This document shows positions 3,630-62,427 of a DNA stretch of 64,000 nucleotides, in pieces; the stretch's first letter is position 1, and every line of letters begins with the position of its first letter. A program made the position numbers and the translations under genes. Source of the stretch: Candidatus Dadabacteria bacterium CSP1-2 (GTDB lineage: Bacteria > Desulfobacterota_D > UBA1144 > Nemesobacterales > CSP1-2); the NCBI GenBank assembly GCA_001443445.1, contig LDXN01000008.1:3707-67706 (forward strand). The letters run 5' to 3'. The notes under the pieces were generated by a model that was given only the letters and a program-made list of their open reading frames with translations, was not told the DNA's origin and made no database searches.

Positions 3630-4130
3630 AAACATACTTACTATCCTTACGTGCATTGGTTCGACTATATAAAAATCGAGAACTAGTTTTTAACCCGTAA
3701 TAAGAAAGGTGAAAGAAACCTTATTACATAACATGCTGTTTCATTTAACAACAACGGAGATATAAATATAGAGAAAATATACGGAAGAATTTCTGGCCTT
3801 AAGCCAAGCGAGCTTCATAACCTCTCAAGACTGTATAAAAGAAGAGTTCCAAGCAGAGAAATAATAACCCTAGAGCTTGGAAGAACGCTATCTCAAATAT
3901 CCTACGATATTAAAAAAGAAATAACCCTTATAATCAATAGAAAAGGAAGAACAGAAATAGTATTCGTAGGGGACTCTTATGAATTACCCTTTAATGATCT
4001 TCTTGAGCGATCGAGAGAATCAAAATACAGGCTCAGGGGTTATAGACTTATTCATACCCACATCAAAAATCCCGATCTTTCTCACCCTGACCTCGTAACA
4101 CTTCTAAATGAGAGGCTTGATTTAATAGGC

Positions 4131-5516: not shown

Positions 5517-6440
5517 TTAAATATCAACTTCTGCTACCCCACTTCTTAGGACCTTAACATCATCGTCACGCCGTGTAACCTCAAAGCCTAGTACTGTTTT
5601 CTCATCCTGTTTTCCCATTTCCCATCCATCAACAACAAGTATGTCTCCAGGGTAGACGGGGCTTGCGAACCTGCTGCCAAGTCTTCTTAACTTCGAAGGA
5701 TCACCGTCGAGATAACACTCTATAATTGCCCTCATTGTTAAGGACAACATGCAAAGACCATGCACAATTATTCCCTTAAGTCCTGAAGCCTTTGCAACAT
5801 TTTCATTTGTATGGATAGGATTTCTATCCCCTGAAGCCTGTGCATATTTATATGTTATATCCCTAGGAACCCTGATAATCTTTCTAAATAATAGCGAGCT
5901 TGAATTATCTACCTGAATCTGCTCCTTTTTACCTACAACATTTTGTTTCTGTCCACTTCCAATTCCTCGTATAAAAATCCCCCATTCTGATTCAACCACC
6001 CTCTCACCTTTCTGGTTGTTAGAAACAACATTTATAATAAGGAGCTCACCGCTTCCCTTATCCTCTATGTTTTTAACCTTAGCCCGACACGTAATTGTGT
6101 CTCCAGGTCTAATAGGTTTATAGAAGTGCATATCTTGTTCCCCATGAACAAGCATGAGGAGATTCCTGCCTAACTGCTCCGGACCACCATGTAGAGCTAC
6201 CTCCGTCCATAGTTTCTCTGCCAAGAATAATTCATGAACTACCGCAAAACTTGGAGGAGCCATACCAGAACCAGATATTCCGGACAAGGCACCGTTATAA
6301 TTGTAGTAGGTCATATTACGTGAGCCTATTGCCAAGGCATATTTATAGATTGCTTCCGGTGTAACCTCATACACAACAGAAGGTGATTCGTAACCTATAT
6401 AATCTCTATTAAGTCCCATAGCGTTTCTCCTCTCCTCCAT
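5517..6440 (-). CDS. MaoC-like double hotdog (R)-hydratase/dehydratase
   Basis: 307 aa with two hotdog halves. The second carries the MaoC motif (DRNPIHT...GIIVHG). Confidence 0.7.
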   Translation of the reverse strand: MEERRNAMGLNRDYIGYESPSVVYEVTPEAIYKYALAIGSRNMTYYNYNGALSGISGSGMAPPSFAVVHELFLAEKLWTEVALHGGPEQLGRNLLMLVHGEQDMHFYKPIRPGDTITCRAKVKNIEDKGSGELLIINVVSNNQKGERVVESEWGIFIRGIGSGQKQNVVGKKEQIQVDNSSSLLFRKIIRVPRDITYKYAQASGDRNPIHTNENVAKASGLKGIIVHGLCMLSLTMRAIIECYLDGDPSKLRRLGSRFASPVYPGDILVVDGWEMGKQDEKTVLGFEVTRRDDDVKVLRSGVAEVDI

Positions 6441-6947
6441 TAAAAGATTTTTTAATAAACTTTCACCTAAATCTCCTGCACAACGATTTTATCAAAATTT
6501 AGATCGACTTGACTTCGCAATCGCTTACAAAGAGATGTGGATCGTGTTAGCAACCGCTTGATTAAAAAATTAAGAGAGTGGCAATGCCCTTCTGAATTCA
6601 TCTTAAAAATCTCAAACTTCATAAGGAATCATCAATAATTGACTTGTTCATACTGGTTACGAATCTCATTTTTATCTTAATACAACTTTAACATAAATTT
6701 AATAATATCTTAATATAAATTGAAATGGTTGTCAAGGATTTTTTATTCGCATTTGCAAAATTTCATCATTCCTATAAGTCTCTTTGGAACACTCAATTAA
6801 GTTGTAAAAGCGAGCTCGTCAAAGCGATTTATAGTCACATTTGACGGCAGAAATGAAAAAAAGGATTCAAAAACCTCGAGCTATATTTACTAACCAAGAT
6901 GATCAGGGGCTGCCTATACTCTATAAATTGGATTTTTAGCATGTTTT

Positions 6948-6967
6948 AAGTATGTCAAAACATACTT
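6948..6967. promoter_or_regulatory. perfect 8-bp inverted repeat AAGTATGT-N4-ACATACTT upstream of dksA; candidate operator
   Basis: Read directly, about 40 nt upstream of the dksA start, in an AT-rich 550-bp spacer. Confidence 0.35.
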
Positions 6968-6992
6968 TTACCATTTACATAATACAACCAAC

Positions 6993-7850: not shown

Positions 7851-8692
7851 CCTTCTTTAGCTTTTTCCTTTTCCTTCTTCTCGATCTTTGCAAGGAGGCT
7901 AGCTGCCTTATCGTGGTATTTTGCTGTTGGGAATTCCTCTATTAGACGAGTAAGGACCTCTTTTGCAAATTGTCTCTCACCCATATCATAGTATGACTTT
8001 CCAAGTACATAAAGCGCTTCCTCATATTTGCTTGTATCCTGGTACCGTTCTACAACCAGCTTATACCGTTCGGCAGCAGCTTTATAGTTCTTTCTTTTTG
8101 CATAAAAGTTTCCTAAATATATCTCACGTTTAGCAAGACTATTACGGCATTCGATTACCATCTTTTTAGCGTCACCAACAAGGGGAGAATCTGGATACTT
8201 ATCGACAAAGATATTAAACCACTTTAGAGCCTCTCTTGTGTCTGTAGGGTCTCTATCGTAGCTTTTCATCCGTTTAAAATGCGAAAGCGCTAAACGAAAG
8301 GTGGCATAAGGGGTTTCTTCATGGCCTGGATGACGCTTTATAAATTCCTCATATTCAACCGCTGCTTGTTCATACTCCCCTTTTTTGAAATAAGTATCGC
8401 CAGTTCGTAGCTCTGCAAGGGTAGCATAAGGACTATAAGTATATCTAATTTGGATTTCCTTAAATAGCTTAAGAACAAGGTCGTAATCCGTGCCTGTAAA
8501 GATCCACGGGAATCCTCGCTTTTGTTCAAGTTCATTCATAGCCCTATTATATAGAACTTCAGGCCCCGCGCTGCCATCGATCCGCTTGGAGCTACAAGCA
8601 AATAGTATAAAAATAGCAGGAATCAGTATTAAAGGGCTTATTTTCCTCATTAACTTTAACAAAATAGTATTCAGATAGGTGCGCCCTGTCAA
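7847..8692 (-). CDS. bamD: outer membrane assembly lipoprotein BamD-like (TPR)
   Basis: Signal peptide plus lipobox-like LFACSS. TPR repeats with the BamD-like pattern (YNRAMNELEQKRG...YFKKGEYEQAAVEYEEFIKRHP). Confidence 0.7.
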   Translation of the reverse strand: MTGRTYLNTILLKLMRKISPLILIPAIFILFACSSKRIDGSAGPEVLYNRAMNELEQKRGFPWIFTGTDYDLVLKLFKEIQIRYTYSPYATLAELRTGDTYFKKGEYEQAAVEYEEFIKRHPGHEETPYATFRLALSHFKRMKSYDRDPTDTREALKWFNIFVDKYPDSPLVGDAKKMVIECRNSLAKREIYLGNFYAKRKNYKAAAERYKLVVERYQDTSKYEEALYVLGKSYYDMGERQFAKEVLTRLIEEFPTAKYHDKAASLLAKIEKKEKEKAKEG

Positions 8693-12334: not shown

Positions 12335-12973
12335 TCAACCACAGGCAACTATCTCTTTAAGTGAGCTATGTCTAAAAATTTCTTCTTCTAATACGTCTTT
12401 GGCAATTCTTTTTGGATTTTCTCTATCGAGGTGCCATTTTAATGGATTGTTTTGAATATATTCTCTGATTTTTTGTAATTCATCTTCATTACGGATTATA
12501 TGTTCATAATAATTACGTTGCCAGAATTTACGATGAAACGAGGGTAGTATATTGTGTTTTACCCCACGAATGTATTCGTTTGTGGTCATTGTTTTAAACC
12601 ATTGAATAATTTTACGTAGGGGCGAACCTATGTGTTCGCCCTGTAAATCCATGTCTTTGCCATTGTTATTTGGGCAGACACGCAGGTCTGCCCCAACATT
12701 TGTTTCAACAATTGTTATAATGCCATGAAAATGGTTGGGCATAATGATATATTCATCAATTTTTATATTTGTGAATTTGTTGGGTAATACCACCCACCAT
12801 TTTTCAATAATCTGCCCAGCAACATACAATTCCACTTTGTCATTTTTAATCTCGCCTAATAAACATTCTCTATTATGCGTGCAAATCGTTATAAAATACA
12901 CCCCCGGTTGTGAATAATCGTATTCTTTCAATCGTATTGACCTTCTATGATGAACATCAGGATTGTATTTCAT
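12335..12973 (-). CDS. REP-associated tyrosine transposase (RAYT, IS200-like HuH), copy A, intact frame
   Basis: 212 aa. N-terminal HRRSIRLKEYDYSQPGVYFIT, HuH motif MPNHFHGII, catalytic Tyr region WQRNYYEH. Carries an in-frame REP-like insert (12616-12694). Confidence 0.8.
   Translation of the reverse strand: MKYNPDVHHRRSIRLKEYDYSQPGVYFITICTHNRECLLGEIKNDKVELYVAGQIIEKWWVVLPNKFTNIKIDEYIIMPNHFHGIITIVETNVGADLRVCPNNNGKDMDLQGEHIGSPLRKIIQWFKTMTTNEYIRGVKHNILPSFHRKFWQRNYYEHIIRNEDELQKIREYIQNNPLKWHLDRENPKRIAKDVLEEEIFRHSSLKEIVACG
12616..12694. repeat. two REP-like hairpins inside the RAYT-A ORF (GTAGGGGCGAACCTATGTGTTCGCCC ... GGGCAGACACGCAGGTCTGCCCC)
   Basis: Palindromes read directly. The first unit is identical, as reverse complement, to the intergenic unit at 55041-55066. 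The insert length preserves the frame. Confidence 0.8.
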
Positions 12974-13321: not shown

Positions 13322-13932
13322 TCACTTCCCTACATATACCTCGTGTTTAAAAATTTCATCTTCCAATGCATCTGTGGCAATTTTCTCTGGATTTTCTCTA
13401 TCTAAATGCCATCTTTGTGGATTATTTTGAATATATTCCCTGATTTTGTTTAATTCATCTTCTTTGCGGATAACGTGTTCATAATAATTTCGTTGCCAAA
13501 ATTTACCAACTATATCAATCCTATTTTCTTTTATGTACTTTAACCAATCATGTACGCATAGTGATTTAAACATTCCAATAATTTCACCAATTGTAGGGGC
13601 GGTCTTGCACCCGCCCTATTATTTGGGGCAATTGTAGGTGCAGGCCTTGCGCCTGCCCTATTATTTGGGGCAACCGCAAGGGTTGCCCCTACAAATATTA
13701 TCCCATGAATATGATTCGGCATAATGATGAACTCGTCTAGTTGTATATTGTCAAATCTGCTTGTTATTTCATGCCATTGCCGATTGACCATCTGCTTTAG
13801 TTGTGGATATTGTTCAAAATACAATTCTTTATTATCTGTACAAATCGTTATAAAATATGCCCCTGGCTGTGAATAATCGTATTCTTTCAATCGTATTGAC
13901 CTTCTATGATGAACATCAGGATAGTATTTCAT
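13322..13932 (-). pseudogene. RAYT copy B, split by a frameshift inside a REP-like insert (ORFs 13540-13932 and 13322-13573)
   Basis: The N-terminal ORF has HRRSIRLKEYDYSQPGAYFIT and MPNHIHGII and then reads through the REP units as VGATLAVAPNNRAGARP. The C-terminal ORF has WQRNYYEH and NNPQRWHLDRENP. The two frames overlap at 13540-13573. Confidence 0.75.
13593..13692. repeat. REP-like cluster of three hairpin units (with a tandem duplication) inside RAYT copy B
   Basis: GTAGGGGCGGTCTTGCACCCGCCC, GCAGGCCTTGCGCCTGC and GGGCAACCGCAAGGGTTGCCCCTAC. The motif CTATTATTTGGGGCAA is duplicated. Confidence 0.8.
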
Positions 13933-16101: not shown

Positions 16102-16206
16102 GTAGGAGCGCCATCCCTTCGACCGTTCGATCCTTCGATAAACTCAGGGCTCACGGCTCAGGAGACATGCTTGGCGCGACAGGTCGCGGCTAGAAGCCGC
16201 TCCTAC
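16102..16206. repeat. REP-like/MITE-like element with GTAGGAGCG...CGCTCCTAC termini in the potB-potC spacer
   Basis: 9-bp inverted termini about 90 bp apart, with an internal hairpin GCGCGACAGGTCGCGG. Confidence 0.7.
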
Positions 16207-27009: not shown

Positions 27010-27163
27010 AACTTGAATTTACAATACTATAGTCTTATTTACAATATAAAATATAAAGACTAGATTCGATCACTATAAGTCTCCCATGCTAATATCTTAT
27101 GCTAATATTTGACAAAGGTAAGTTATTCACCTATATTTTGTAGTTTATTACATAAAAGAGTTG

Positions 27164-27236
27164 GGCCCATAGCTCAGCTGGTAGAGCTCCCGGCTCATAA
27201 CCGGAGGGTCCCTGGTTCGAACCCAGGTGGGCCCAC
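27164..27236 (+). tRNA. tRNA-Met (anticodon CAT); an elongator or a tRNA-Ile2 (lysidine) type cannot be excluded
   Basis: Cloverleaf read by eye: acceptor GGGCCCA/TGGGCCC, D-stem GCTC/GAGC, anticodon loop CTCATAA, T-arm CCTGG-TTCGAAC-CCAGG. G1-C72 is paired, so it is not an initiator. CCA is not encoded. Confidence 0.85.
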
Positions 27237-28527: not shown

Positions 28528-28933
28528 GGACGAGTGAACTGGGCGATCGCTGGGTTTTCCAATTTGGATAACCCAGAGGAAAGTCCGAACTCCATAGGGT
28601 AGAGTGCTGGGTAATACCCAGGTGTCGTAAGACAACGGAGAGTGCAACAGAAAACAAACCGCCTATGTTTTTCTATCCTCTATTAGAATTAGAAAAACAG
28701 GCAAGGGTGAAAAGGCAGTGTAAGAGACTACCGCGCAGAATGGTGACATTTTGCGGCTTGTAAACCCCACTCGGAGAAAGACCAAATAGGGAAGTAGCTG
28801 TTTTCTTTTTAAAGAGAACAGGCAGGTAGCCCGCCTGATGCTTCCGGGTAGGTCGCATGAGGCATCCAGAAATGGATGTCCTAGATGAATGATCGTCCAA
28901 GACAGAATTCGGCTTATAGGTTCGCTCGTCTCT
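28528..28933 (+). ncRNA. rnpB: RNase P RNA (bacterial type A)
   Basis: Conserved blocks GAGGAAAGTCCGAACTCCATAGGGTAG, GGGTGAAAAGGCAGTGTAAGAG and GACAGAATTCGGCTTATAGG. P4 covaries (AGTCCGAA / TTCGGCTT). The P1 helix pairs GGACGAGTGAAC with GTTCGCTCGTC. Confidence 0.85.
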
Positions 28934-34028: not shown

Positions 34029-34062
34029 AACCAATTCTCTATGGAAATATCGAATAAAAAAG

Positions 34063-34122
34063 TAGGGTCGAACATCGCGTTCGCCCATAATGGGAATGGG
34101 CAACCGCAAGGGTTGCCCCTAC
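34063..34122. repeat. REP-like pair (GTAGGGTCGAACATCGCGTTCGCCC ... GGGCAACCGCAAGGGTTGCCCCTAC) downstream of fmt
   Basis: The second unit is identical to the unit inside RAYT copy B (13670-13692). Confidence 0.8.
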
Positions 34123-38188: not shown

Positions 38189-38271
38189 TTGTCATTCCTG
38201 CATGTATTAAGCGGGAATCCAACATTTCAAGCACATTATGGATGTCCGATAAATACATTCGGGCATGACAA
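38189..38271. mobile_element. small TIR element, family D (TTGTCATTCC ... GGCATGACAA; internal GCGGGAATCCA and CCGATAA)
   Basis: Inverted termini read directly. Related tandem copies at 51812-51960. Confidence 0.6.
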
Positions 38272-42847: not shown

Positions 42848-42857
42848 TAAAATTAAT

Positions 42858-42886
42858 GTAGAGACGACCCGACGGGTCGTCTCTAC
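42858..42886. terminator. 29-bp palindrome GTAGAGACGACCCGACGGGTCGTCTCTAC; bidirectional terminator candidate between the LapA-like gene and the ilvB-like gene
   Basis: 14-bp stem. Same palindrome as at 51627-51655. GTAG/CTAC termini. Confidence 0.6.
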
Positions 42887-42940
42887 TGAGAGGCCACCGG
42901 TTTTATTACAATACTAAATTTTCAAAAATCGTGAGAACCG

Positions 42941-45161: not shown

Positions 45162-45560
45162 CTACTTTTTAAAAACCCTTTTTACAAACCGGTCCTCATC
45201 AAGCTCCGAAATTAGATAGCCAATTTCATATTGATTACCTGGATAACAATAAAGCCTTATTCCCTGAGGTGTAATCAAAAACTTACCCTCCTTTTTTGTG
45301 CCATCGGGAAGCTTCACTTCATAAACCGTAAATCCCACAGTGCCTCCGCCAATATTCACAATCTTTCTTTCTTCTCTTAGTATTCTCACGCCTTCTGCTA
45401 TATCCCAAACCTTTGGATATATCTGACCTTTAACTTCTAGCTTCATATCAGTGTTATATTTAGTTTTCCGATCATGCCTGCTTGACGGGACAAGAATGTC
45501 TCGTCTATCCTGATTATTATGCACGGATAGGCGGGATTTTCGAATCCCGCCAGCCAACAA
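45162..45560 (-). CDS. hypothetical protein; probable real start at the internal MKLEVKG
   Basis: The N-terminal 36 codons of the ORF overlap hairpin repeats, so they are unlikely to be coding. Confidence 0.35.
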   Translation of the reverse strand: MLAGGIRKSRLSVHNNQDRRDILVPSSRHDRKTKYNTDMKLEVKGQIYPKVWDIAEGVRILREERKIVNIGGGTVGFTVYEVKLPDGTKKEGKFLITPQGIRLYCYPGNQYEIGYLISELDEDRFVKRVFKK

Positions 45561-45580
45561 TGCAGGACTCGAAAGTCCAA
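45527..45580. repeat. hairpin family C units (ATAGGCGGGATTTTCGAATCCCGCC and CAGGACTCGAAAGTCC)
   Basis: Relatives of GCGGGACTTTCCAGTCCCGC, seen at 51.28 and 52.10 kb. Confidence 0.7.
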
Positions 45581-45763
45581 CCTATCTAGTTTCATAAGAG
45601 TCCTCGATATAATTTTATTGTAACCCGAAGTTTAGAGCTATTTCTCGCATCTTATATTTCTCATCGTACATTTTGTTTGTAGTAGAGAGAATTCAATGCA
45701 CCATATACCTACGCCAAGGCGATCTGCTTACTTTCTTTAATACATAAATTCTAATGAGAACAC

Positions 45764-46213
45764 TCAAATCACAAAAAATCTCTTGAAAACTTCAACCCTA
45801 GAAATCATACCTACACAGGTTAGGAGTAAGTCCAGCTTTTTATTTCGTTCATACACAAACCGCGCTTTTAATTCTCCTCCACAATACTGGCAATTTGATT
45901 CTTCAGCCCATTTGTCACACTTCTCACAATACTCACCCTTTTCGTTATACCAGGTAAATAGGGAATAAACTAACTCATTTAATCCTCTTTTACCCAAAGA
46001 ATCAGACCAATCACTAAGAGCCTCTTTTATACCTTTTCGGAATCTCTGCGGGACTTCAGTCAGATCACCCGAATAAATTTCTTCTTTATCCACATAAATC
46101 CTAAAGAAAAAGTCCATCTTCTTACTTAATCCGTGATTCGTGTATTGTGGATTGTGGATCGTTTTTTGTGAACCGAATCGTTCGACTGAGCTCACGACGA
46201 AGTCACGAAACAC
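45764..46213 (-). CDS. hypothetical zinc-ribbon protein (CxxC...CxxC); probable start at the internal MDFFFR
   Basis: CEKCDKW...CQYCGG. The upstream part of the ORF overlaps the heptamer repeat array. Confidence 0.4.
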   Translation of the reverse strand: MFRDFVVSSVERFGSQKTIHNPQYTNHGLSKKMDFFFRIYVDKEEIYSGDLTEVPQRFRKGIKEALSDWSDSLGKRGLNELVYSLFTWYNEKGEYCEKCDKWAEESNCQYCGGELKARFVYERNKKLDLLLTCVGMISRVEVFKRFFVI

Positions 46214-46226
46214 TAGTCACGAACCA
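46131..46226. repeat. heptamer arrays (TCGTGTA/TTGTGGA... on the top strand, TTCGTG-type on the bottom strand) in convergent arrangement
   Basis: Read directly. Shares CACTAGTCACGAWCCAC with 28981-28998 and the CGTGWWT unit with the glgA 3-prime array. Confidence 0.65.
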
Positions 46227-46335
46227 CCAGTTAGTCTCCACAACCTTCCTGGTATCCACAGTACTTGCACATAGCATGACAACCAATCCTCATTAGAGGC
46301 TACTACAATTAGGACATATAGTAATATCTTCAGCT

Positions 46336-46854
46336 TCATCTTTCGCTGAACCTTCTTGAGTCATAGTCTTTTAGTGTTTTACCTAAGATTTGTGGATTAT
46401 TTTGAATATATTCCCTGATTTTGTTTAATCCATCTTCATTACGAATTATATGTTCATAATAGTTACGCTGCCATAATGGAATTCCTGGTGTTTGATGAAT
46501 ATCATTAATTAGTATTGAATTGGAAACGGGTCTGCCAAATTGTTCAAATGTAGGGGCACGTTGCAACGTGCCCCTACTATCATTGTTAATAACAATAATA
46601 ATTCCGTGAAAATGGTTGGGCATTACAATATACTCATCCAATATCAAATTTCTTCGCAAGTCAAATGTTTTTAGCCATTCTGTTTTAACAATTTCGCCTA
46701 ATTGGTTTAATACTATTTCCCCACCTACTACATCACCAAAAACACATTCTCCTTTTTGTGTACATACCGTTATAAAATATGCCCCTGGCTGTGAATAATC
46801 GTATTCTTTCAATCGAACCGACCTTCTATGATGAATATCAGGATTGTATTTCAT
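46336..46854 (-). CDS. RAYT copy C, with an in-frame REP-like insert and a divergent/shortened C-terminus
   Basis: HRRSVRLKEYDYSQPGAYFIT, MPNHFHGII, WQRNYYEH. The insert is translated as DSRGTLQRAPTF. Confidence 0.75.
   Translation of the reverse strand: MKYNPDIHHRRSVRLKEYDYSQPGAYFITVCTQKGECVFGDVVGGEIVLNQLGEIVKTEWLKTFDLRRNLILDEYIVMPNHFHGIIIVINNDSRGTLQRAPTFEQFGRPVSNSILINDIHQTPGIPLWQRNYYEHIIRNEDGLNKIREYIQNNPQILGKTLKDYDSRRFSER
46550..46577. repeat. REP-like palindrome GTAGGGGCACGTTGCAACGTGCCCCTAC inside RAYT copy C
   Basis: 27/28 identical to the intergenic copy at 11174-11201. Confidence 0.85.
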
Positions 46855-47051
46855 ACTAACCTTACCCTCCTATATATTCACAAACACACACCTAACACAA
46901 TAAATCCCGTCCCCTTGTTCTTTTGAGCAACCGCAAGGGTTGTCCCTAAAAATATTATCACGTCTATATCCATTAACCCTGTATTCTCCCCCTTATAATA
47001 GAAACGAAATTTAGAATCTTTACTATTATAGGTAATTACAGAAGCCCTGGC

Positions 47052-49172
47052 TTACCGAACTACAAAAGTCCTTATAGTCTCAGCGAGTACGTTTGGATCA
47101 TTAGTAGGCTCCGCGCATCTGGTACCAGCACAGACGCAAGCAACAGGTGATTTTAATTTTGATATTTCCTGGATAGTTTGAGATAGGTTCCCTAGCTCAC
47201 TATTAGATGAGTTTATCTGAATAACGATTTTATGCGGTCTGTAAATCGACCATGCAGTTCTTAGAAGTTCTTCTACCCTTTGATCATCCCTTTCACCAAC
47301 AATAACAACCCGAGGCGGATGTTTGACGTGATTATGTAAAGCAAGAAAGTAAGTGGCTGCGTAAAGACCGAATTTCTCAGCGACTCCACTAAAATACATT
47401 AGTGTATTCTCTGAATATTCTCGATAACGATAATCATCTGTTAGATAGTGTAATCTGTCGAAAAAGGCTGCGGCGCTTGCGTTGGGTGACGGTATTGGGT
47501 CATCCTGAATTGGCTTAAAACGATTCTTTAATATGACTACTCTATCATTCGTCTCTTCTATATCGAAGAATCCCCCGTTTCTTTCATCATAGAATTTCTG
47601 GGTGACCAAATTAGCCAGATTAATTGCCTTTCCAAAATAAAAACCATTTCCCGAGGTCTCGTAAGCATCTAGACATGCAATCCCCATTTTTACTTGATCA
47701 TCAAGAAATCCGACGACTTTTGCTCGTCCATCAAAATAGGTGTGACAAAAACCTATTCCTTCTTCAAAGCAGTTTCTAAGTAGAAAATCTAGAGTCTTTA
47801 TGGCTAAATCCCTTGCTCCTTCATCTCCTAGAACCTTGTAAGCCAGAAGAAAAGCTGAAACCATCATGGCGTTCCAATTTGTATAAATTATCTTATCTAC
47901 ATATGGAGTAGGTCTTCTTTTTCGTGCTTCAAAAAGACGACTCTTTCCTGATTCTATTAACTCCCTCACTTTCTCATTAGAAATATTAAGCCTTCTTGCA
48001 ATCTCTTCTGATTCCATATCAATAAAAAGAAGATTCTTCGCAGGATTGTGCTTCATCTCGCCTCGTGAGTAAATATTGTAATAAAGAGATATAACCTTGG
48101 CCTCCTCAGAACTAAGAGCATCTTCTACCTCCTCCTTTGTCCATGTGAAGTAATCACCATCGTCGTGAAGGTCAATATCAGCATCCTGACTTCCATAAAA
48201 CCCTCCATTTTCTTGGTCAGAAAGAACATCCATCACAAAACCTATAATTCCTTCTGCTATGCGACGGAAAAAATCGTTACCTGTAACCTGATATGCTAGA
48301 AGATAGGTTTTTAAATGTTCGGAGTTGTCATAGGACATCTTCTCAAAGTGAGGAACGATCCATTGAGCATCTACAGAATAGCGATGGAATCCGCCTCCAA
48401 TCTGGTCATACATTCCTCCCTTTGCACTTTTTGTGAGTGTTTTATCTATTATGTGTAAGAACTCTTCGTCTTTGGTTTCAAAGTAACGAGCAAGTAGGAG
48501 TTCGACTGCACCAGAATGCGGGAATTTCGGCGCAACTCCAAACCCGCCATTTACCGAGTCGAATGAATCCATCATATTTTCAATAGCTCTATCGACTAAG
48601 AGAATGTTAAGCTCACCAGGGGATGACTCAAATTGATTTGCTAGCAAAAGCGCCTGGTAGATTTTATTTGACTCGGAAACGACAGCCTCTTTATTTTTTC
48701 TGTAATAATCAATAACCCTATTGAGCACATTACGAAAAGAAGGTAGGTTTTGTGTATCTCTAGAAGGGAAATAGGTGCCCCCAAAAAATACCTTTCCTTC
48801 CGGTGTCATAAATCCAGTAAGAGGCCAGCCACCTTGACCTGTAAGAGCACTTACCGCCTGCTGGTATCTTCTATCAACATCTGGTCTTTCATCCCGATCC
48901 ACTTTTATTGCGATAAAATTCGCGTTGATTATTTTTGCAATCTCTTCATCCTCATAACTTTCCCTGTCAATAACATGGCACCAGTGGCACCATACAGCAC
49001 CGATATCTAGGAGAATAGGACGGTCTAATTCTTTTGCCTTCTGGAAAGCCTCTTCACACCAAGGATACCAGTCTACAGGCTGATGACTCGCGCTTCTTAA
49101 ATACGCACTTGATTCATCTGCTAACCGATTCTTTCCTTCTTGTGTCACCATTTCACTCATAATAACTTTCAA
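47052..49172 (-). CDS. thioredoxin-domain protein, DUF255/YyaL family (thioredoxin plus six-hairpin glycosidase-like)
   Basis: 706 aa. N-terminal VWCHWCHVIDRESYED. Confidence 0.8.
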   Translation of the reverse strand: MKVIMSEMVTQEGKNRLADESSAYLRSASHQPVDWYPWCEEAFQKAKELDRPILLDIGAVWCHWCHVIDRESYEDEEIAKIINANFIAIKVDRDERPDVDRRYQQAVSALTGQGGWPLTGFMTPEGKVFFGGTYFPSRDTQNLPSFRNVLNRVIDYYRKNKEAVVSESNKIYQALLLANQFESSPGELNILLVDRAIENMMDSFDSVNGGFGVAPKFPHSGAVELLLARYFETKDEEFLHIIDKTLTKSAKGGMYDQIGGGFHRYSVDAQWIVPHFEKMSYDNSEHLKTYLLAYQVTGNDFFRRIAEGIIGFVMDVLSDQENGGFYGSQDADIDLHDDGDYFTWTKEEVEDALSSEEAKVISLYYNIYSRGEMKHNPAKNLLFIDMESEEIARRLNISNEKVRELIESGKSRLFEARKRRPTPYVDKIIYTNWNAMMVSAFLLAYKVLGDEGARDLAIKTLDFLLRNCFEEGIGFCHTYFDGRAKVVGFLDDQVKMGIACLDAYETSGNGFYFGKAINLANLVTQKFYDERNGGFFDIEETNDRVVILKNRFKPIQDDPIPSPNASAAAFFDRLHYLTDDYRYREYSENTLMYFSGVAEKFGLYAATYFLALHNHVKHPPRVVIVGERDDQRVEELLRTAWSIYRPHKIVIQINSSNSELGNLSQTIQEISKLKSPVACVCAGTRCAEPTNDPNVLAETIRTFVVR

Positions 49173-49324
49173 AATTAAACAATTAGTGGCTCATCTTCAA
49201 ATAGGATAGGCAATTTTATGGGCAAAGGCATGCCTTGTCCCTACTTTGCTGTCCACAAGCAAGCCTGTTCCGATGTATTCTACTTAGTCTTAGCCATACT
49301 CAGAACAAACGGGAGCTCATTATT

Positions 49325-49470
49325 ATCCGAGGCTGGAAAACCTCGGCTATCGTTATGTAATTATTTGTATGGAACCTTCGATAGTCGCGACTTTCCAGTC
49401 GCGGATTTTTATAATTGGAATTTATCTCGGCATGGCCTGCCCTGAGCCAGGTCCCCGATTTAATCGGGGA
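49325..49470. repeat. cluster of short GC hairpins (CCGAGG-CTGGAAAA-CCTCGG; CGCGACTTTCCAGTCGCG; CCCCGATTTAATCGGGG) in the DJ-1 to DUF255 spacer
   Basis: The 38-mer TCGATAGTCGCGACTTTCCAGTCGCGGATTTTTATAAT recurs at 51362-51400 with 2 mismatches. Confidence 0.75.
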
Positions 49471-49497
49471 AGGGATGCCGCTCCTACGACACATAGG

Positions 49498-50028
49498 TTA
49501 CCCCTTTTTTTCTTTTATTGCCTTAATAATCTCGCGCATAAAGGCAGGCAGGTCATCTGGGATGCGTGATGTCACCAAGTTTCCATCTCTTACAACCTCA
49601 GCATTTATATACTCAGCTCCTGCATTTACAATGTCATCCCTAATAGCACTAACGCAGGTCACCTTTTTACCCTTTAGTATTCCTGCCGAGACCAACACCC
49701 ATCCAGCATGGCAGATAGCTCCAATTACCATGCCATGATCAAAGGCATCTTTAACCAGTCTTAACATCGCAGGGTAACGGCGCATATAATCTGGAGCATA
49801 GCCTCCGGGGACAATGACACAATCGAAATCTACACCCTTAACCTTGTCTGCCGAAGTGTCCACTTTTACTGGATAACCATGTTTACTGTTATACGTGTCA
49901 GAACTTCCACTTCCTACTACAATTACCTCCGCTCCTTCTTCTCTAAACCTATAAAGCGGATACCAAAGTTCTAATTCTTGATATTGGTTCTCAGCTAAGA
50001 TCGCAACCCTTTTCCCTTTTAGTTCCAT
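49498..50028 (-). CDS. DJ-1/PfpI family protein
   Basis: Nucleophile elbow AICHAGWVL. Confidence 0.85.
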   Translation of the reverse strand: MELKGKRVAILAENQYQELELWYPLYRFREEGAEVIVVGSGSSDTYNSKHGYPVKVDTSADKVKGVDFDCVIVPGGYAPDYMRRYPAMLRLVKDAFDHGMVIGAICHAGWVLVSAGILKGKKVTCVSAIRDDIVNAGAEYINAEVVRDGNLVTSRIPDDLPAFMREIIKAIKEKKG

Positions 50029-50094
50029 GATTGCCTCCTTGACTAGGAATTGGGAATTAGGATTAATTCCTAACTCCTAATGCCTAATTCCTAA

Positions 50095-51165
50095 TCAAAT
50101 CCTTGCAACCTTCGCCATTAGTAAATGATCAACTAAGACCAGGTTTACCATTGCCTCAGCGATGGGAACTGCCCTCGGACAAAGGCAAGGATCATGCCTA
50201 CCTTTTACAACAAGATCCTTAATGTTGCCATACTTATCCACTGTTTCTTGAGTCTTTGAAATTGAAGAGGTTGGTTTTATAGCAATCCTAACTACCAGAT
50301 TCTCTCCAGTTGTTATTCCACCCTGGATTCCGCCTGCATTGTTTGTTTTAAATCTGAGTCTATTAGAATCATCCATATACATAACATCATTGACCTCAGA
50401 CCCTTTTCTTCTTGAAACCTCAAAACCCATTCCTACTTCAAACCCCCTTATCCCACCTATACTCATAAGGGCTTGCGCAAGGTCGGCGTCCATTTTATTA
50501 AACACAGGGTCGCCAAGACCTGGCGGGACACCGATTGATACAACCTCAACTGTCCCACCGATTGAATCCCCTTCATGCCTAACCTTCTCAATTAGGTCTA
50601 TCATCTCAATAGCCTTTTCAGAATCCGGGCATCTAACTGGATTATTTTCAATCTCATTAAAATCTATTTCCTCAGCCACAATATCTCCAATTTGCTTTAC
50701 ATAGCCAATAGTCTTTACTCCGTTTAAATTCAGGATTTTCTTTGCAAAAGCCGCGGCGGCAACACGTCCGACTGTTTCTCTCGCAGAAGACCTCCCGCCA
50801 CCTCTCCAGTCTCTCACTCCGTATTTAACGTCATAGGTATAATCCGCATGGCCAGGGCGATAAGTGTCCTTTATGTCTTCATACGATTTTGAAATCACAT
50901 CTACATTCTTAATCATAAGTGAAATGGGTGTACCAAGGGTTTTTCCTTCAAAGACGCCTGAGAGCATCTCTACCTTATCTGGCTCTTTTCTCTGAGTGGT
51001 TACTTTACTCTGACCAGGGCGACGACGATCGAGTTCATATTGGATTTCCTCTTCCGAGATCTCAAGCCCTGCAGGACAGCCATCTATTATTACCCCAAGA
51101 GCAGGACCGTGAGATTCACCCCAGGTAGTTATCTGAAAAAGCCTACCAAAAGAATTTCCAGGCAT
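50095..51165 (-). CDS. aroC: chorismate synthase
   Basis: 356 aa. GESHG, the RPGHAD signature and GRSSARET. Confidence 0.9.
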   Translation of the reverse strand: MPGNSFGRLFQITTWGESHGPALGVIIDGCPAGLEISEEEIQYELDRRRPGQSKVTTQRKEPDKVEMLSGVFEGKTLGTPISLMIKNVDVISKSYEDIKDTYRPGHADYTYDVKYGVRDWRGGGRSSARETVGRVAAAAFAKKILNLNGVKTIGYVKQIGDIVAEEIDFNEIENNPVRCPDSEKAIEMIDLIEKVRHEGDSIGGTVEVVSIGVPPGLGDPVFNKMDADLAQALMSIGGIRGFEVGMGFEVSRRKGSEVNDVMYMDDSNRLRFKTNNAGGIQGGITTGENLVVRIAIKPTSSISKTQETVDKYGNIKDLVVKGRHDPCLCPRAVPIAEAMVNLVLVDHLLMAKVARI

Positions 51166-51226
51166 AGGGAAATTTTATATCAGTAGGAAAGGCATTGCAA
51201 ATACTTTAACGGATTAGGGAAGATTA

Positions 51227-51428
51227 TAGGCGGGGATGGGAAACCCCACCTATCCGCATATTTCAATTTCCACCAGAAATAGGCGGGACTTTCCAGTCCC
51301 GCACTGATGGGCGGGGTTGGAATACCCCGACTTCGTTGTTTTATTTGCTTGAATATAAACATTCGATAGCAGCGACTTTCCAGTCGCGGATTTTTATAAT
51401 GGGGATATATATCGCGCCTAGAAGGCGC
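51227..51428. repeat. cluster of hairpin family C units (GCGGGACTTTCCAGTCCCGC, CGGGGTTGGAATACCCCG, GCGACTTTCCAGTCGCGG, GCGCCTAGAAGGCGC)
   Basis: Read directly. Part of a 955-bp non-coding spacer. Confidence 0.75.
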
Positions 51429-51626
51429 ACCTACGATTCATTTGGGTTGTTGTTTCCCATACTCGTAGGAGAGGCTTCCTTCGATGAACTCAGGACAGGT
51501 CTAGGCTCGAACCAACTGTGGTAAGCCAATACATGTAGGGCTCATTCCCCGAATGAGCCTTGACATTGAAGGCTGATGAAGGTATCAGCCCTACTCTAAA
51601 GATTTTTATGAGCCCGACGAATTATT

Positions 51627-51667
51627 GTAGAGACGACCCGCCGGGTCGTCTCTACTTTATTTATTCA
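51627..51667 (+). terminator. intrinsic terminator: GTAGAGACGACCCG-C-CGGGTCGTCTCTAC followed by TTTATTTATT
   Basis: 14-bp perfect stem plus T-tract. No annotated plus-strand gene upstream. Confidence 0.6.
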
Positions 51668-51811
51668 GATCTGTCCAGTTTTCGATTCTTTTTAGATGTA
51701 AATCTAGTTTTTAGGAAATCGTATTGCTCTAGTCTTAATCCAATAAGACCTGAGTTAATGATTTGGGTAACTGATGTTCTACACTTATACACTTAAGTAG
51801 GGATATAGGAT

Positions 51812-51960
51812 CGTCATTCCCGCAGTCCCCGATGAATTCCTCTTGGATAGCGGGAATCCATTTTGCTTTGTCATTCCCAAACGTTACCCGATAAAAACAT
51901 TCTGGTACAAGCTTTATTGGGAATCCAATGGATACCCGATAACTGCACTCGGGTATGACA
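51812..51960. mobile_element. two tandem family D elements (CGTCATTCCCGCAG...AGCGGGAATCCA; TTGTCATTCCC...GGGAATCCA...CCGATAA...CGGGTATGACAG)
   Basis: Same architecture as 38189-38271. Confidence 0.55.
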
Positions 51961-52016
51961 GAAGCGACGGATGCACGATTAACCTTCTGCACGCATTAAG
52001 CCTTGTCCAGCATTGG

Positions 52017-52119
52017 CAGGCGGGGTTGGAAAACCTCGTCTCATTGTGCAGGGTTAGAAAACCCTGCCTATCAGTGTATGTTAAGATTCTGGGGGATAGG
52101 CGGGACTTTCCAGTCCCGC
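52017..52119. repeat. hairpin family C cluster (GGCGGGGTTGGAAAACC, CAGGGTTAGAAAACCCTG, ATAGGCGGGACTTTCCAGTCCCGC) abutting the rlmD stop
   Basis: The last unit is identical to 51279-51302. Confidence 0.75.
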
Positions 52120-52120
52120 T

Positions 52121-53377
52121 TTATATGAGTCTTGAAAGCAACGCTACTGATTCAATATGATATGTCTGTGGGAACATATCAAATGGGCGAATTTTTATAA
52201 GTTTATAGCCAAACTCAGTAAGCGTCTTTAAATCCCTTGCCAAGGTTGGTGGATCGCATGAGACGTAAATGATTTTCTCTGGAGAAAGTTCTACTAGTCC
52301 TTTCAATATACCCTTTGCCCCTTCTCTCGGTGGGTCGAGAACAACTAAATCGAATTTATCATCCCTTTTAAGCGATTCTTCGACAAAAAGTTCGGCTGGA
52401 GTGGGATCAAAGATCACATTCCTTATTTGATCTGCCTCTGCACTCTTTTTTGCAAGCTTGATAGCCTTTGCGCTAACGTCAACCCCTACTACCTCTCTAG
52501 CCCTTTTTGCAATGTGAAGTGAAAAATTTCCAATCCCACAGTATAGGTCTAAAACCCTTTCGTGTCCTTTAAGATCTGACCATTCAACTAAAGTCTCAAC
52601 TAATCGCTCATTAATTTCTCTATTTGACTGAATGAAAACCGATGGAGTTGAATAGAACTTTAAGCCAGATTGAGTAAATTCAAAGTCCTCTTCATGATAT
52701 CCTGCTACCGATACGTTCCCTATCTCTAACGATTTTTTTATATGATCACGAAGGGTGTTAAGTTTCTTTGGATCCTTCTCACTGAATGGGACAAGAGAAA
52801 TGTGAGCAGTCTTTCCATCTGATGCTATATGAATCCTTGCCAAAGGGTAATGTGCATTAATCGAAGAAAGGCATTTAGTAAGACGAAAAATCGCTTCATT
52901 TATAATACTCGAAGCAATTGGACAACCTTCTATCGGGACTCGTTTTCGACTTCCCTCTTCATGGAATCCAAGATGATACCTTCCCTTTTGAAACCATGTT
53001 GAAAGGGTAACCCTATTTCTGTAGCTGTATTCTTCTAGAGAAGGAACTATTGGCTCAATCTCGATGCCTCTTAATCTACCAATTCTTTCAAGAGTTTCTC
53101 TTAGAATGCTTACTTTAGCAGCAAGTTGAGAAGGATACTTAAGATGTTGCAACTGGCACCCTCCACATTCCCCAAAAACAGGACAGGGCGCCTGAGTCCT
53201 TTCAGGAGAGGTTCTTAAAATCTCTTCAATAATTGCCTCAGCGTAACTACCTTTGTCCTTTGTGATTTTAACCTTTAAAACATCGCCAGGTAGCCCACCC
53301 TTTACAAAGACCACCTTACCATTGGCTCTAGCCATTCCTGCCCCGCCGAATGTGAGCTTTTCAATTTCGACTCGCAT
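52121..53377 (-). CDS. rlmD: 23S rRNA (uracil-C5)-methyltransferase RlmD/RumA
   Basis: TRAM domain, 4Fe-4S cluster Cys (CGGCQLQH), SAM MTase motifs (DLYCGIGNFS), catalytic PPR/Cys region. Confidence 0.85.
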   Translation of the reverse strand: MRVEIEKLTFGGAGMARANGKVVFVKGGLPGDVLKVKITKDKGSYAEAIIEEILRTSPERTQAPCPVFGECGGCQLQHLKYPSQLAAKVSILRETLERIGRLRGIEIEPIVPSLEEYSYRNRVTLSTWFQKGRYHLGFHEEGSRKRVPIEGCPIASSIINEAIFRLTKCLSSINAHYPLARIHIASDGKTAHISLVPFSEKDPKKLNTLRDHIKKSLEIGNVSVAGYHEEDFEFTQSGLKFYSTPSVFIQSNREINERLVETLVEWSDLKGHERVLDLYCGIGNFSLHIAKRAREVVGVDVSAKAIKLAKKSAEADQIRNVIFDPTPAELFVEESLKRDDKFDLVVLDPPREGAKGILKGLVELSPEKIIYVSCDPPTLARDLKTLTEFGYKLIKIRPFDMFPQTYHIESVALLSRLI

Positions 53378-53696
53378 GATATAACTTTAACTTAACAATT
53401 TCCAGTAGCTTGCTACAGGGTTTCAGCTGTCATCTCGAACGCACGTGAGAGATCTAGATTCCTCACGGAGCCTGTGCTGAGCCACTGCGAAGTATTCGGA
53501 AAGACACCACGTGTCATATTGCTTCGTCACTGCCTTTTATTTCCTTTTCTCGTTCTTTTCATTTCCCTCCGAACCACACTGCGGTTCAAAGAATACTCCA
53601 CTCGAAATAATTCTCCCCGAAATAACCAAAAGAACTGTCGTTTGTATGTTGATGCCCTGCAGCTTGCCTCAGGATTCATTATTGTATCCCAGCAAC

Positions 53697-54763: not shown

Positions 54764-54800
54764 GTAGTAGGGGCAGGTTTGAATCCTGCCCCTACAGTAG
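54764..54800. repeat. REP-like palindrome CTGTAGTAGGGGCAGG-TTTGAAT-CCTGCCCCTACAGTAG
   Basis: Read directly. Confidence 0.75.
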
Positions 54801-54912
54801 ACATGATTTGGTACAAGGTTGAATTCGTCTAATTGTATGTTGGTATAACTCTCTGGTATTTTGCCATCACAGTTGCTTGACGTCATCCCTGTTTTTTTAT
54901 ATCCGCCGTTGG

Positions 54913-61885: not shown

Positions 61886-61948
61886 AGAGTATAAAAAATG
61901 CCATACAATCCTGAAAAACAACTAGACGTAGTATTCGACTGAAAGAAT

Positions 61949-62427
61949 ATGATTATTCAGAGCCAGGCATATTTTATAACGAGTTGCACTCATAATAGAG
62001 AATTGTATTTTGAACAATACCCACAACTAAAGCAAATTGTAAATCTACAATGGCAAAAAATACCAGTCAGATATGCCAATATACAATTAGTAGGGGCAAC
62101 CCTTGCGGTTGCCCAAAAGAATGGGCGGGTGCAAGACCCGCCCCTACAATTGGGGAAATCATTGGAACGTTTAAATCACTGTGCGTACATGATTGGTTAA
62201 AATACATAAAAGAAAACAGGATTAATACGGTTGGTAAATTCTGGCAACGTAATTATTATGAACACATTATCCGCAAAGAAGAACCGTTCAAACGTACACG
62301 TGAATATATTCTAACCAATCCCTTACGCTGGCATTTGGACAGAGAAAATCCCTATCGGAAAGGCGAAGATGATTTTGATAGATGGCTTGAGAGCCAATTC
62401 AAAGATGGAAGGGTCTCTCAATTTTAA
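61949..62427 (+). pseudogene. RAYT copy D: 5-prime truncated, HuH region deleted, frameshifted within a REP-like insert
   Basis: ORF1 ...AYFITSCTHNRELYFEQYPQLKQ... jumps from ANIQL straight into the REP translation VGATLAV. ORF2 has WQRNYYEH and NPLRWHLDRENP. No HuH motif remains. Confidence 0.7.
62090..62147. repeat. REP-like pair (GTAGGGGCAACCCTTGCGGTTGCCC ... GGGCGGGTGCAAGACCCGCCCCTAC) inside RAYT copy D
   Basis: Units shared with 17086-17167 and 13593-13692. Confidence 0.8.

Follow-up and report, generated by a model that had tools for sequence, protein, structure and literature searches.

In Proteobacteria such as E. coli, Pseudomonas, and Stenotrophomonas, REP, BIME, and REPIN sequences are GC-rich hairpins of 20–30 nt that carry a conserved unpaired 5' tag. 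Their stems show compensatory changes, they occur as inverted dimers and in mixed clusters with unique filler, they lie between unidirectional genes just past a stop codon, and their host genomes contain RAYT-type genes. GTAG-tagged REPs have been described as a superfamily, together with REP clusters of mixed composition and flanking filler (Di Nocera et al., 2013, PMC3733652). Subclass 2.4 of the TnpA_REP transposases (Quentin et al., 2018, PMC6006769), which is equivalent to RAYT group 4 (Bertels et al., 2017, PMC5581495), is accompanied by REPs of “canonical long” and “double-foot” form, and its hallmark is the presence of in-frame REPs between the HUH and Tyr motifs, the median HUH-Y distance being approximately 88 aa (PMC6006769). 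In vitro, changes at the first position of the tag are partly tolerated in some systems, the variant tested being CTAG rather than ATAG (PMC8266576).

Here we describe a long gene-free spacer that shares all of the above features of the proteobacterial clusters and departs from them in three respects: the host belongs to Candidatus Dadabacteria, the commonest repeat family in the spacer is tagged GATAG rather than GT[AG]G, and at least five different families are found in one spacer. Literature searches returned no paper pairing Dadabacteria with REP-type repeats, a weak negative given that both terms were never required together. The spacer is most probably a BIME-like REP cluster, that is, an intergenic “landing pad” in which several short palindromic repeat families have accumulated and turned over. 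Its elements are repeats with tags and covarying stems, they are dispersed, RAYT-like genes lie in the same window (the whole 64-kb stretch of DNA analysed), and the spacer turns over fast and lacks constraint. Presumed REP transposases are encoded nearby, and the spacer is therefore best regarded as ordinary selfish or structural DNA rather than as a hidden gene or small-RNA locus.

The rlmD-aroC Spacer

As the original prediction had proposed, the spacer (51166–52120) is flanked by the genes for chorismate synthase (aroC; 50095–51165, minus strand; TIGR00033, 463 bits) and RlmD (rlmD; 52121–53377, minus strand; TIGR00479, 350 bits). Its length of 955 bp, correctly described as nearly 1 kb and unusual, is the greatest among the 55 gaps between ORFs of at least 120 aa in the window; the accompanying statement that genes here usually overlap or lie less than 150 bp apart was too strong, since only 28 of the 55 gaps are that short and the median gap is 139 bp. 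Fifteen distinct sequence versions of the spacer were found, all in independent metagenome assemblies, and it is therefore no assembly artefact. Annotated repeats occupy approximately 53% of its length, so that the spacer does not consist of repeat copies throughout; the remaining 47% or so is AT-rich filler, unique in sequence and no more stably folded than its shuffled counterparts. The filler is exemplified by the following segment, for which a repeat search gave no match elsewhere:

51657–51812, unstranded: unique AT-rich filler of approximately 33% GC, with no repeat, conserved ORF, or unusual fold (fold z = -1.3 on the plus strand, -0.7 on the minus strand); absent from the relative L001

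The small ORFs of the spacer appear spurious, as had been suspected, although those of at least 25 aa number 13 and not nine: the four longest have no Pfam match, and the interior that carries the ORFs is mostly without counterpart in the nearest relative. When the whole window was scanned with Rfam at gathering thresholds, RNase P and tRNA-Met were the sole matches, both outside the spacer, and a permissive scan of 50900–52400 (E up to 10) gave, within the spacer, only weak eukaryotic snoRNA and miRNA models scoring at most about half of the gathering score. A tRNA/tmRNA scan found none in the spacer, plasmid and phage collections yielded no match, and tblastn of the RAYT proteins of the window against the spacer revealed no transposase remnant.

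A gap of this size might also be the scar of a lost gene, namely the remains of an NAD-dependent epimerase/dehydratase gene between rlmD and aroC that REPs colonised later. The gene order in more distant Dadabacteria is argG-queA-rlmD-epimerase-aroC (L027) or epimerase-aroC (L005), the 331-aa epimerase gene ending 3–50 bp before aroC, and its size (996 bp) is close to that of the spacer. However, tblastn with the epimerase gave no match in L001 at a limit of E = 1e-3 and none in the spacer of the window when the limit was relaxed to E = 10; in three further loci (L002–L004) the upstream gene is another one and the spacer measures 285 bp, and the loci compared fit a loss here as well as a gain there. 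We consider this history unlikely; it is in any case compatible with a REP cluster and offers no alternative explanation of the repeat content.

Two further candidates were rejected. A replication origin in the spacer was dismissed, as the DnaA box is absent and the gene strand does not switch. Likewise, the 298 bp at 53391–53688, considered as a MITE, have neither a second copy nor a terminal inverted repeat.

Hairpin Excess and Family C

In the spacer, a neutral hairpin finder detected 11 GC-rich hairpins (stem of 7 bp or more), compared with 0.84 ± 0.87 (maximum 4) in 200 dinucleotide shuffles. The density is thus 11.5 hairpins per kb, whereas the remaining window has 1.0 per kb. Similarly, a census of RTAG tags followed by a hairpin counted 51 in the window, where whole-window shuffles gave approximately nine, and 12 of the 51 fall in the spacer, which makes up 1.5% of the window length. 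The 11 hairpins comprise seven units of family C, recognised by a covariance model, and four GTAG-tagged hairpins; the expectation of at least eight GC hairpins was thus surpassed, although family C itself contributes slightly fewer than the eight ascribed to it. The covariance model (R1), run on the whole window with filters off, recovered 12 family C units, all within the 6.6 kb of 45485–52119:

45485–45586, unstranded: three family C units outside the spacer
49327–49404: two family C units outside the spacer
51226–51254, unstranded: family C-like hairpin with a two-sided tag (ATAGG-CGGGG...CCCCA-CCTAT); 25.3 bits, E = 1e-4, on the minus strand
51278–51334, unstranded: REPIN-like inverted doublet of family C, units 51278–51302 (plus) and 51311–51334 (minus) with a 7-nt linker; 39.5 and 23.0 bits
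51362–51400, plus strand: family C unit with flank; 36.1 bits
52005–52042, unstranded: partial family C doublet, a one-arm remnant and unit 52020–52042 (minus); 18.9 bits; kept in L001
52048–52072, minus strand: family C unit GATAGGCAGGGTTTTCTAACCCTGC; 38.8 bits; identical unit in L001 at 5369–5393
52095–52119, plus strand: family C unit GATAGGCGGGACTTTCCAGTCCCGC; 43.1 bits; ortholog in L001 at 5322–5346

All family C units share the tag ATAG, in most cases with a G before it (GATAG), and so differ from canonical REPs, whose tag is GT[AG]G; the loop, TTTC, is also invariant. In the alignment, 94% of stem cells are paired, a fraction inflated by the choice of sequences for hairpin formation, and changes on both sides are seen in five of the seven pairs. 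The covariation score was 0.595 against 0.25, a value as high being reached in none of 500 shuffles. One candidate pair of compensatory changes, G51286A/G51301T, was rejected, direct inspection having revealed two broken stem pairs.

Several units have recognisable copies. A 49-nt stretch of the doublet at 51278–51334 matches positions 8094–8142 of a lineage contig (L122) at 88% in the opposite orientation, where an inverted dimer spans 8086–8143, and 51362–51400 is a copy of 49377–49415 in the neighbouring intergenic region (blastn, 39 nt, 94.9%). Within the spacer, the partial doublet at 52005–52042 is a 78% direct repeat of 51296–51332. The hairpin at 51226–51254 has an ortholog in L001 at 5912–5936, and that at 52095–52119 ends 1 nt from the rlmD stop codon (52121–52123).

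GTAG-Tagged REPs and the Terminator-Like Site

A GT[AG]G foot tag is carried by four elements of the spacer, at 51412–51436, 51535–51559, 51571–51594, and 51627–51655, which are arranged as follows:

51412–51436, minus strand: GTAG-tagged REP hairpin GTAGGTGCGCCTTCTAGGCGC, from the RTAG-hairpin census; relative at 16186–16206
51535–51594, unstranded: GTAG-tagged inverted REP pair (REPIN or head-head dimer), first unit on the plus strand and second on the minus strand
51620–51667, unstranded: double-foot REP (GTAG...CTAC) GTAGAGACGACCCGCCGGGTCGTCTCTAC with a T-rich run, called by the terminator scan

The inverted pair forms two hairpins when folded as single-stranded DNA (z = -5.25), and further inverted dimers occur in the window at 12616–12696, 13634–13692, 34062–34122, and 62090–62147.

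The original prediction had raised the possibility of a small-RNA locus in the spacer, and a plus-strand small-RNA gene starting near the TTGACA at 51560 and ending at the hairpin and T-run of 51627–51667 was considered. The latter does score as an intrinsic terminator, with a stem at 51627–51655 (13 pairs, loop of 3) and the tail TTTATTTATT, and, as predicted, no plus-strand gene lies upstream of it; a TTGACA hexamer does exist 62 nt upstream of the stem, although at 51560–51565 and not at 51572, and REP-derived transcripts are known from other bacteria. Nevertheless, the hexamer sits inside the linker of the inverted REP pair and has no acceptable -10 at 16–18 nt (TATCAG is found there), and the promoter scan called neither this site nor any other on the plus strand of 51166–51627. 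The hairpin itself is a copy of a dispersed double-foot REP: a 37-nt copy at 42851–42887 is 94.6% identical, with one loop difference inside the palindrome, and related copies are found in L001 (5795–5822), L139 (3838–3867), and also L081. The flank of the copy at 42851–42887 has no T-run, so that the T-run lies outside the repeat proper. Moreover, L001 lacks an ortholog of the segment, the unique sequence on either side of it folds as shuffled sequence does, no Rfam family comes near its gathering score in the spacer, and the spacer is polymorphic, its interior being unconserved. A small-RNA gene is thus very improbable, and the terminator-like site is better read as part of the REP cluster.

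Matches to the 25-mer GTAGGGGCAANCCTTGCGNTTGCCC were obtained on more than 120 metagenome contigs; among the ones that have sequence in common with the window, GC ranges from 0.32 to 0.54. No REP-like hairpins were found in the more distant Dadabacteria loci. Across the 64-kb window and a few contigs, copies of the spacer repeats lie at 42851–42887, 49377–49415, 45485–45586, and 38190–38269 and in L122, L139, L077, and L001. Several of the sites in the window are intergenic.

Family D Elements

The presence of family D in the spacer, also anticipated, was borne out in the form of a solo half-unit followed by a composite element, and a compact copy occurs elsewhere in the window:

51813–51960, unstranded: family D cluster of MITE-like nested palindromes, from a pattern scan; fold z = -3.9
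51813–51859: solo half-unit, GTCATTCCCGC...GCGGGAATCC
51870–51959: composite element, GTCATTCCC...GGGAATCC and GGATACCCGA...TCGGGTATGAC
38190–38269: compact 80-nt copy that forms one long hairpin; z = -5.1

The family D tag is GTCAT, unlike the GT[AG]G of canonical REPs. The cluster has an ortholog in L001 (5571–5740, 82%), and a further copy is present in L077 (5965–6007, 86%), so that the family is represented by two loci in the window, together with L001 and L077. Family D resembles MITEs in being an 80–95-nt element with inverted ends of approximately 30 nt (GTCATTCC... and ...GGNATGAC) that forms a single long hairpin and is intergenic and of low copy number; unlike in MITEs, each arm is itself a hairpin, in REPIN fashion. 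Neither a target-site duplication nor a parent transposon was found in the sequences surveyed.

RAYT/TnpA_REP-Like Genes in the Window

A relaxed phmmer search, in which an E. coli YafM sequence served only as a probe and the matches of which were then checked against Pfam and NCBIfam, led to four RAYT/TnpA_REP-like tyrosine transposase genes or pseudogenes in the window, all outside the spacer:

12335–12973, minus strand: intact RAYT/TnpA_REP-like gene, 212 aa, with HUH motif “NHFHG”, Tyr motif “YIQNNP”, and an in-frame REP pair (12616–12696) between them
13340–13932, minus strand: frameshifted RAYT copy (tblastn)
46336–46854, minus strand: RAYT copy of 172 aa (tblastn)
61924–62427, plus strand: degraded RAYT copy (tblastn)

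The intact gene scores 27.8 bits with Pfam Y1_Tnp (PF01797; cut-off 23) and 63 bits (E = 2e-17) with NCBIfam NF047646, “REP-associated tyrosine transposase”, whose curated cut-off is 80; the NCBIfam scores fall below the cut-off because insertions split the match. Its product aligns with TnpA_REP (PDB 4ER8) at both motifs, weakly (E = 0.06). The hairpins at 12616–12696, 46550–46577, and 62090–62147 lie inside RAYT ORFs, in frame, and are read through.

On the basis of gene and REP features rather than the HMMs of the authors who defined it, these genes can be likened to TnpA_REP subclass 2.4. In-frame REPs lie between HUH and Tyr, two motifs approximately 90 aa apart; the stem of the window REPs has a foot of three G-C pairs (GTAG-GGG...); some REPs are of the double-foot form (GTAG...CTAC), among them the “terminator” of the spacer; and the distribution across phyla is patchy. 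Unlike in subclass 2.4, four copies or pseudocopies are found in 64 kb. The view of the spacer as a mobile-element graveyard can be retained insofar as it holds small non-autonomous repeats of REP, REPIN, and MITE type with RAYT-like genes in the window, but not in the sense of decayed insertion sequences or transposase remnants.

The RAYT-like genes are physically associated with REPs of the GTAGGGGC type. None adjoins family C or D, the nearest (46336–46854) being 750 bp from the closest family C unit and no more than 5.5 kb from any of the 12 in the window. That the RAYTs of the window mobilise these particular repeats is an inference, above all for the GATAG-tagged family C and for family D. 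More specifically, family C could constitute a REP class specific to the lineage, with a guide tag that has changed from GTAG to GATAG, and could be moved by a RAYT paralog such as 46336–46854, a proposal that we regard as doubtful. If true, it would represent a natural retargeting of the TnpA_REP guide sequence, with local hopping.

The most likely course of growth for such a cluster is the following. Hairpins would form where the DNA is single-stranded, as it is, for instance, on the lagging-strand template, and a hairpin with a 5' tag (GTAG, here GATAG) would be the type of substrate that RAYT/TnpA_REP HUH tyrosine transposases cut and rejoin. New copies would settle in permissive intergenic DNA, often beside older hairpins, so that clusters enlarge, and recombination or replication slippage between adjacent copies would then delete or duplicate segments, the 87-bp indel described below being an example.

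Conservation and Strain Variation

Across species, conservation is confined to approximately 40 bp next to aroC, where the promoter scan called the following site:

51166–51202, minus strand: aroC core promoter-like site, with -35 TTGCAA (51200–51195), a 17-nt spacer, and -10 TAAAAT (51177–51172)

The window and L001–L004 agree fully in the motifs TTGCA and ATATAAAAT and diverge further upstream. As the -10 lies just 6 nt from the ATG, the aroC mRNA may be leaderless or nearly so. Evidence of function in the spacer is limited to this promoter-like site, which lies within approximately 40 bp of the ATG. In the comparison with L001, whose flanking genes are approximately 90% identical in DNA, the spacer ends and the family D cluster alone are common to both, the interior is absent from L001 and has been replaced, and turnover is extensive.

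In L001, a sister species, the three hairpins that immediately follow the rlmD stop codon are conserved. REPs of E. coli are 3'-end RNA stabilisers and barriers to transcription or translation, and by analogy these three hairpins may act in the same way. They bear also on whether the spacer is transcribed on the minus strand as a long structured 5' leader or riboswitch of aroC, or as a processed rlmD-aroC operon spacer: both genes are on that strand, and the hairpins begin 1 nt past the rlmD stop codon. Against this stand the conserved promoter-like site only a few nucleotides upstream of the ATG, the halt of conservation approximately 40 bp upstream, the lack of any Rfam match, and an unconserved interior from which natural strains have lost 87 bp without consequence, and a leader or operon spacer of this kind is extremely improbable.

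Within the species, nucleotide diversity (pi) is 0.0075 in the spacer and 0.0015–0.0037 in four of five neighbouring genes compared, the fifth being pfpI (0.0066), so that the spacer is two to three times as polymorphic as most of its neighbours; stem-breaking polymorphisms are among the variants. The sole indel among the 15 strain versions is a loss between two repeat copies:

51287–51373, unstranded: 87-bp segment missing from the short (868-bp) allele, present in five of the 15 strain versions (population alignment)

Its ends lie within a 12-nt core, GACTTTCCAGTC, common to two family C units. In the short allele the hairpin is a mismatched hybrid, ATAGGCGG|GACTTTCCAGTCGCGG, a sign that the segment was deleted between direct repeats, and deletion is the preferred reading of the indel. 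Among the 15 strain versions, no site was cleanly empty in some and filled in others, as in an insertion polymorphism.

Significance

The cluster represents a familiar type of element, found here in a new lineage, and no new kind of biology. Its main value lies in annotation: it accounts for a long gene-free gap, a false “orphan terminator”, and spurious small ORFs in the genome of a candidate phylum. For the organism, it indicates that this Dadabacteria lineage carries REP/REPIN-type repeats together with subclass 2.4-like RAYT genes, and the GATAG family and the strain-level 87-bp deletion provide a small natural data set on the growth and decay of REP clusters.

Genomic setting of the rlmD-aroC spacer

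In this Candidatus Dadabacteria genome, the chorismate synthase gene aroC (50095-51165, minus strand) encodes a protein with 96% identity to that of the Dadabacteria MAG JAHFBK01 (L001) and 79-87% identity to those of five further uncultured relatives; an identical protein is encoded on numerous metagenome contigs, one of them a 65.6-kb scaffold with the gene order of the window. As originally predicted, an unusually long gene-free gap separates aroC from rlmD, which is also encoded on the minus strand: at 955 bp (51166-52120), this spacer is the longest of the window's 55 gaps, whose median is 139 bp. The neighbourhood also includes queA and argG, upstream of rlmD, and pfpI, downstream of aroC. 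Because 15 sequence versions of the spacer were recovered from independent assemblies, it is not an assembly artefact.

Two other long gaps, 3358-4130 (773 bp) and 6441-6992 (552 bp), lie between divergent genes and contain zero GC hairpins. Between queA and rlmD, the window contains 298 bp (53391-53688) that L001 lacks, the distance between these genes being 23 bp there; no hairpins, terminal inverted repeats, or second copy were found for this segment. Rfam and ARAGORN searches of the whole window matched solely RNase P RNA (class A, bacterial, 315 bits; 28531-28932) and tRNA-Met(CAT) (27163-27236).

Repeat content of the spacer

The predicted wealth of hairpins was borne out by a neutral hairpin finder, which located 11 GC hairpins in the spacer compared to 0.84 ± 0.87 (maximum 4) in 200 dinucleotide shuffles; the density of GC-rich hairpins is 11.5 per kb here versus 1.0 per kb in the rest of the window. 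Hairpins that follow a GTAG or ATAG number 51 in the whole window against about 9 in shuffles (an approximately fivefold excess), sort into recurring families, and are located in the spacer in 12 cases. Annotated repeats (those other than family C are listed below) make up about 53% of the spacer, and the remainder, chiefly 51437-51534 and 51657-51812, is unique sequence, unmatched elsewhere, whose folding does not exceed that of shuffled sequence.

GTAG-tagged and family D elements of the spacer
51412-51436, single GTAG-tagged unit
51535-51594, GTAG-tagged inverted pair, folding as two hairpins (z = -5.25)
51627-51655, GTAG-tagged palindrome GTAGAGACGACCCGCCGGGTCGTCTCTAC, the "orphan terminator"
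51813-51960, family D (MITE-like), nested palindromes with ends GTCATTCC... and ...GGNATGAC

The palindrome at 51627-51655 had been taken for an intrinsic terminator lacking an upstream gene, and a terminator scan does call the site (13-pair stem, T-rich tail). The hairpin is nevertheless a repeat copy, as indicated by a 37-nt copy at 42851-42887 (94.6% identity, one loop difference inside the palindrome) that has no T-run after the hairpin, and by relatives in three other loci (L001, L081, and L139); the T-run after 51627-51655 is simply adjoining AT-rich filler. The TTGACA hexamer reported nearby is present, but at 51560-51565 rather than 51572 and with no usable -10.

Family C, comprising short GATAG-tagged hairpins, was searched for with a covariance model trained on 12 distinct copies. 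At E < 0.01 it detects 12 units in the window, of which the spacer holds seven, 45485-45586 three, and 49327-49404 two; 4 of these 12 were outside the training set. Neither the ATAG tag (in most cases GATAG) nor the TTTC loop varies; the 7-bp stem displays both-side changes at five of seven pairs, with 94% of cells paired and a covariation score reached by none of 500 shuffles, values biased toward paired stems and covariation by the choice of copies as hairpins. The family is restricted to this lineage (the window, L001, L122, and L139), the inverted doublet at 51279-51327 matching L122 8094-8142 at 88%, and is essentially absent from the rest of the ~850 kb of other loci searched, mostly metagenome contigs bearing GTAGGGGC-type REPs. 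As for family D, a compact copy at 38190-38269 forms a single 80-nt hairpin (z = -5.1), and copies are also present in L001, at the orthologous position, and in L077.

The GTAGGGGC-type hairpins are located outside the spacer, with identical 25-26-nt copies at distant sites (e.g., 12616 and 55041, or 13667, 34098, and 62090), and are often arranged as inverted pairs of 60-65 nt. Among the matches listed (L051-L170), the REP 25-mer GTAGGGGCAANCCTTGCGNTTGCCC (window 13667-13692, 34098-34122, and 62090-62114) has exact matches on >120 metagenome contigs, with termite gut, soil, sediment, and compost as sources; contigs having sequence in common with the window range in GC from 0.32 to 0.54, and entire REP pairs of 60-65 nt share 83-95% identity with those of the window, a striking degree of DNA conservation for hosts that differ so widely.

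Turnover within and between species

Within the species, nucleotide diversity (pi) is 0.0075 in the spacer, compared to 0.0015-0.0037 in four of the five neighbouring genes compared (pfpI, 0.0066) and 0.0037 and 0.016 in the two other intergenic regions. The hairpin at 51283-51302 carries two stem-breaking changes in most strains, and 87 bp (51287-51373) are absent from 5 of the 15 spacer versions. The breakpoints of this loss fall within a 12-nt core common to two family C units and leave a mismatched hybrid hairpin, the signature of deletion between direct repeats.

Despite flanking genes of ~90% DNA identity, L001 is alignable with the spacer only at 51166-51255, 52009-52120, and the family D cluster, its interior holding other hairpins and other filler; spacer-type hairpins were not found in the more distant Dadabacteria loci L002-L005 and L027. 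L001 retains the three hairpins that immediately follow the rlmD stop; these might stabilise or delimit the rlmD message, a candidate role. Conservation 5′ of aroC across species ends after about 40 bp, a stretch in which a promoter-like TTGCAA-17-TAAAAT reaches to within 6 nt of the ATG. This region (51166-51202, minus strand) shows no Shine-Dalgarno-like sequence, and the aroC mRNA may be leaderless or nearly so in this lineage. Beyond the promoter-like site, no constraint is detectable in the spacer.

The gene immediately upstream of aroC in L027 (5002-5997) and L005 (2197-3177) encodes an NAD-dependent epimerase/dehydratase (331 aa), and in L027 it stands between rlmD and aroC, i.e., in the position of the repeat-rich spacer. 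No trace of the gene is detectable in the window. Its loss at this site is possible, as is its gain in the other loci; loss would be compatible with a REP cluster. In the relatives whose aroC identity is 86%, the upstream neighbour of aroC is a 416-aa ORF (L002 4466-5716) for which Pfam gave no match at E ≤ 0.1.

RAYT-like transposase genes

Metagenome contigs were scanned with the commonest REP 25-mer and then for Y1 transposase motifs, and RAYT-like ORFs (i.e., of REP-associated tyrosine transposases, or TnpA_REP) were found adjoining or surrounding the 25-mer on many of them, as well as in the window.

RAYT-like genes and fragments of the window
12335-12973, minus strand, intact gene, 212 aa
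13340-13932, minus strand, frameshifted gene
46336-46854, minus strand, gene, 172 aa
61924-62427, plus strand, degraded gene
near 54797-54859, fragment

The product of 12335-12973 matches Pfam Y1_Tnp above threshold and the NCBIfam "REP-associated tyrosine transposase" below the curated cut-off (E 2e-17); its HUH and Tyr motifs align with those of E. coli TnpA_REP (PDB 4ER8) in a weak match (E 0.06). REP hairpins lie inside the RAYT-like reading frames of the window and are read through in frame between the two motifs. This gene class is usually described as single copy, so four genes or pseudogenes plus one fragment in 64 kb is a high density. DnaA-box-like 9-mers (TTATCCACA, at most one mismatch) number 32 in the whole window versus 17 expected, with none of 100 shuffles as high; 8 of the 32 sit within RAYT-like paralogs, and the excess may be partly due to sequence that these paralogs share.

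Relation to known REP systems

The spacer is best explained as a cluster of REP-type repeats, turning over fast in permissive intergenic DNA. Sequence-based tests gave no support for the sRNA locus first proposed, nor for a decayed insertion sequence, a riboswitch or leader, or a replication origin. REP dimers and large mixed clusters that include pieces of flanking DNA have been described; most lie downstream of coding regions and between genes that are unidirectional or convergent (Di Nocera et al., 2013, PMC3733652). In-frame REPs between HUH and Tyr are unique to TnpA_REP subclass 2.4, or RAYT group 4 (Quentin et al., 2018, PMC6006769), which also features "double-foot" REPs (GTAG...CTAC), stems with three G-C pairs at their start, HUH and Tyr motifs a median of 88 aa apart, and a patchy occurrence among phyla (PMC6006769; PMC5581495); all of these traits fit the system of the window. 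Our literature searches found no paper pairing Dadabacteria with REP/REPIN repeats, a weak negative since they did not require both terms.

Judging from the family, a RAYT would recognise the hairpin and its tag in single-stranded DNA; spread by this mechanism, which we infer, is supported here only by the presence of the enzymes and by the repeat architecture. In vitro, the last two tag positions matter most, and a first-position change (CTAG was tested) reduced cleavage without abolishing it in one system (PMC8266576). For GATAG-tagged family C and for family D, a link to a RAYT is a candidate only. The whole, a REP/REPIN cluster with subclass 2.4-like RAYTs, belongs to an ordinary kind of element that has been described before, and GATAG-tagged family C is a minor variant worth recording.
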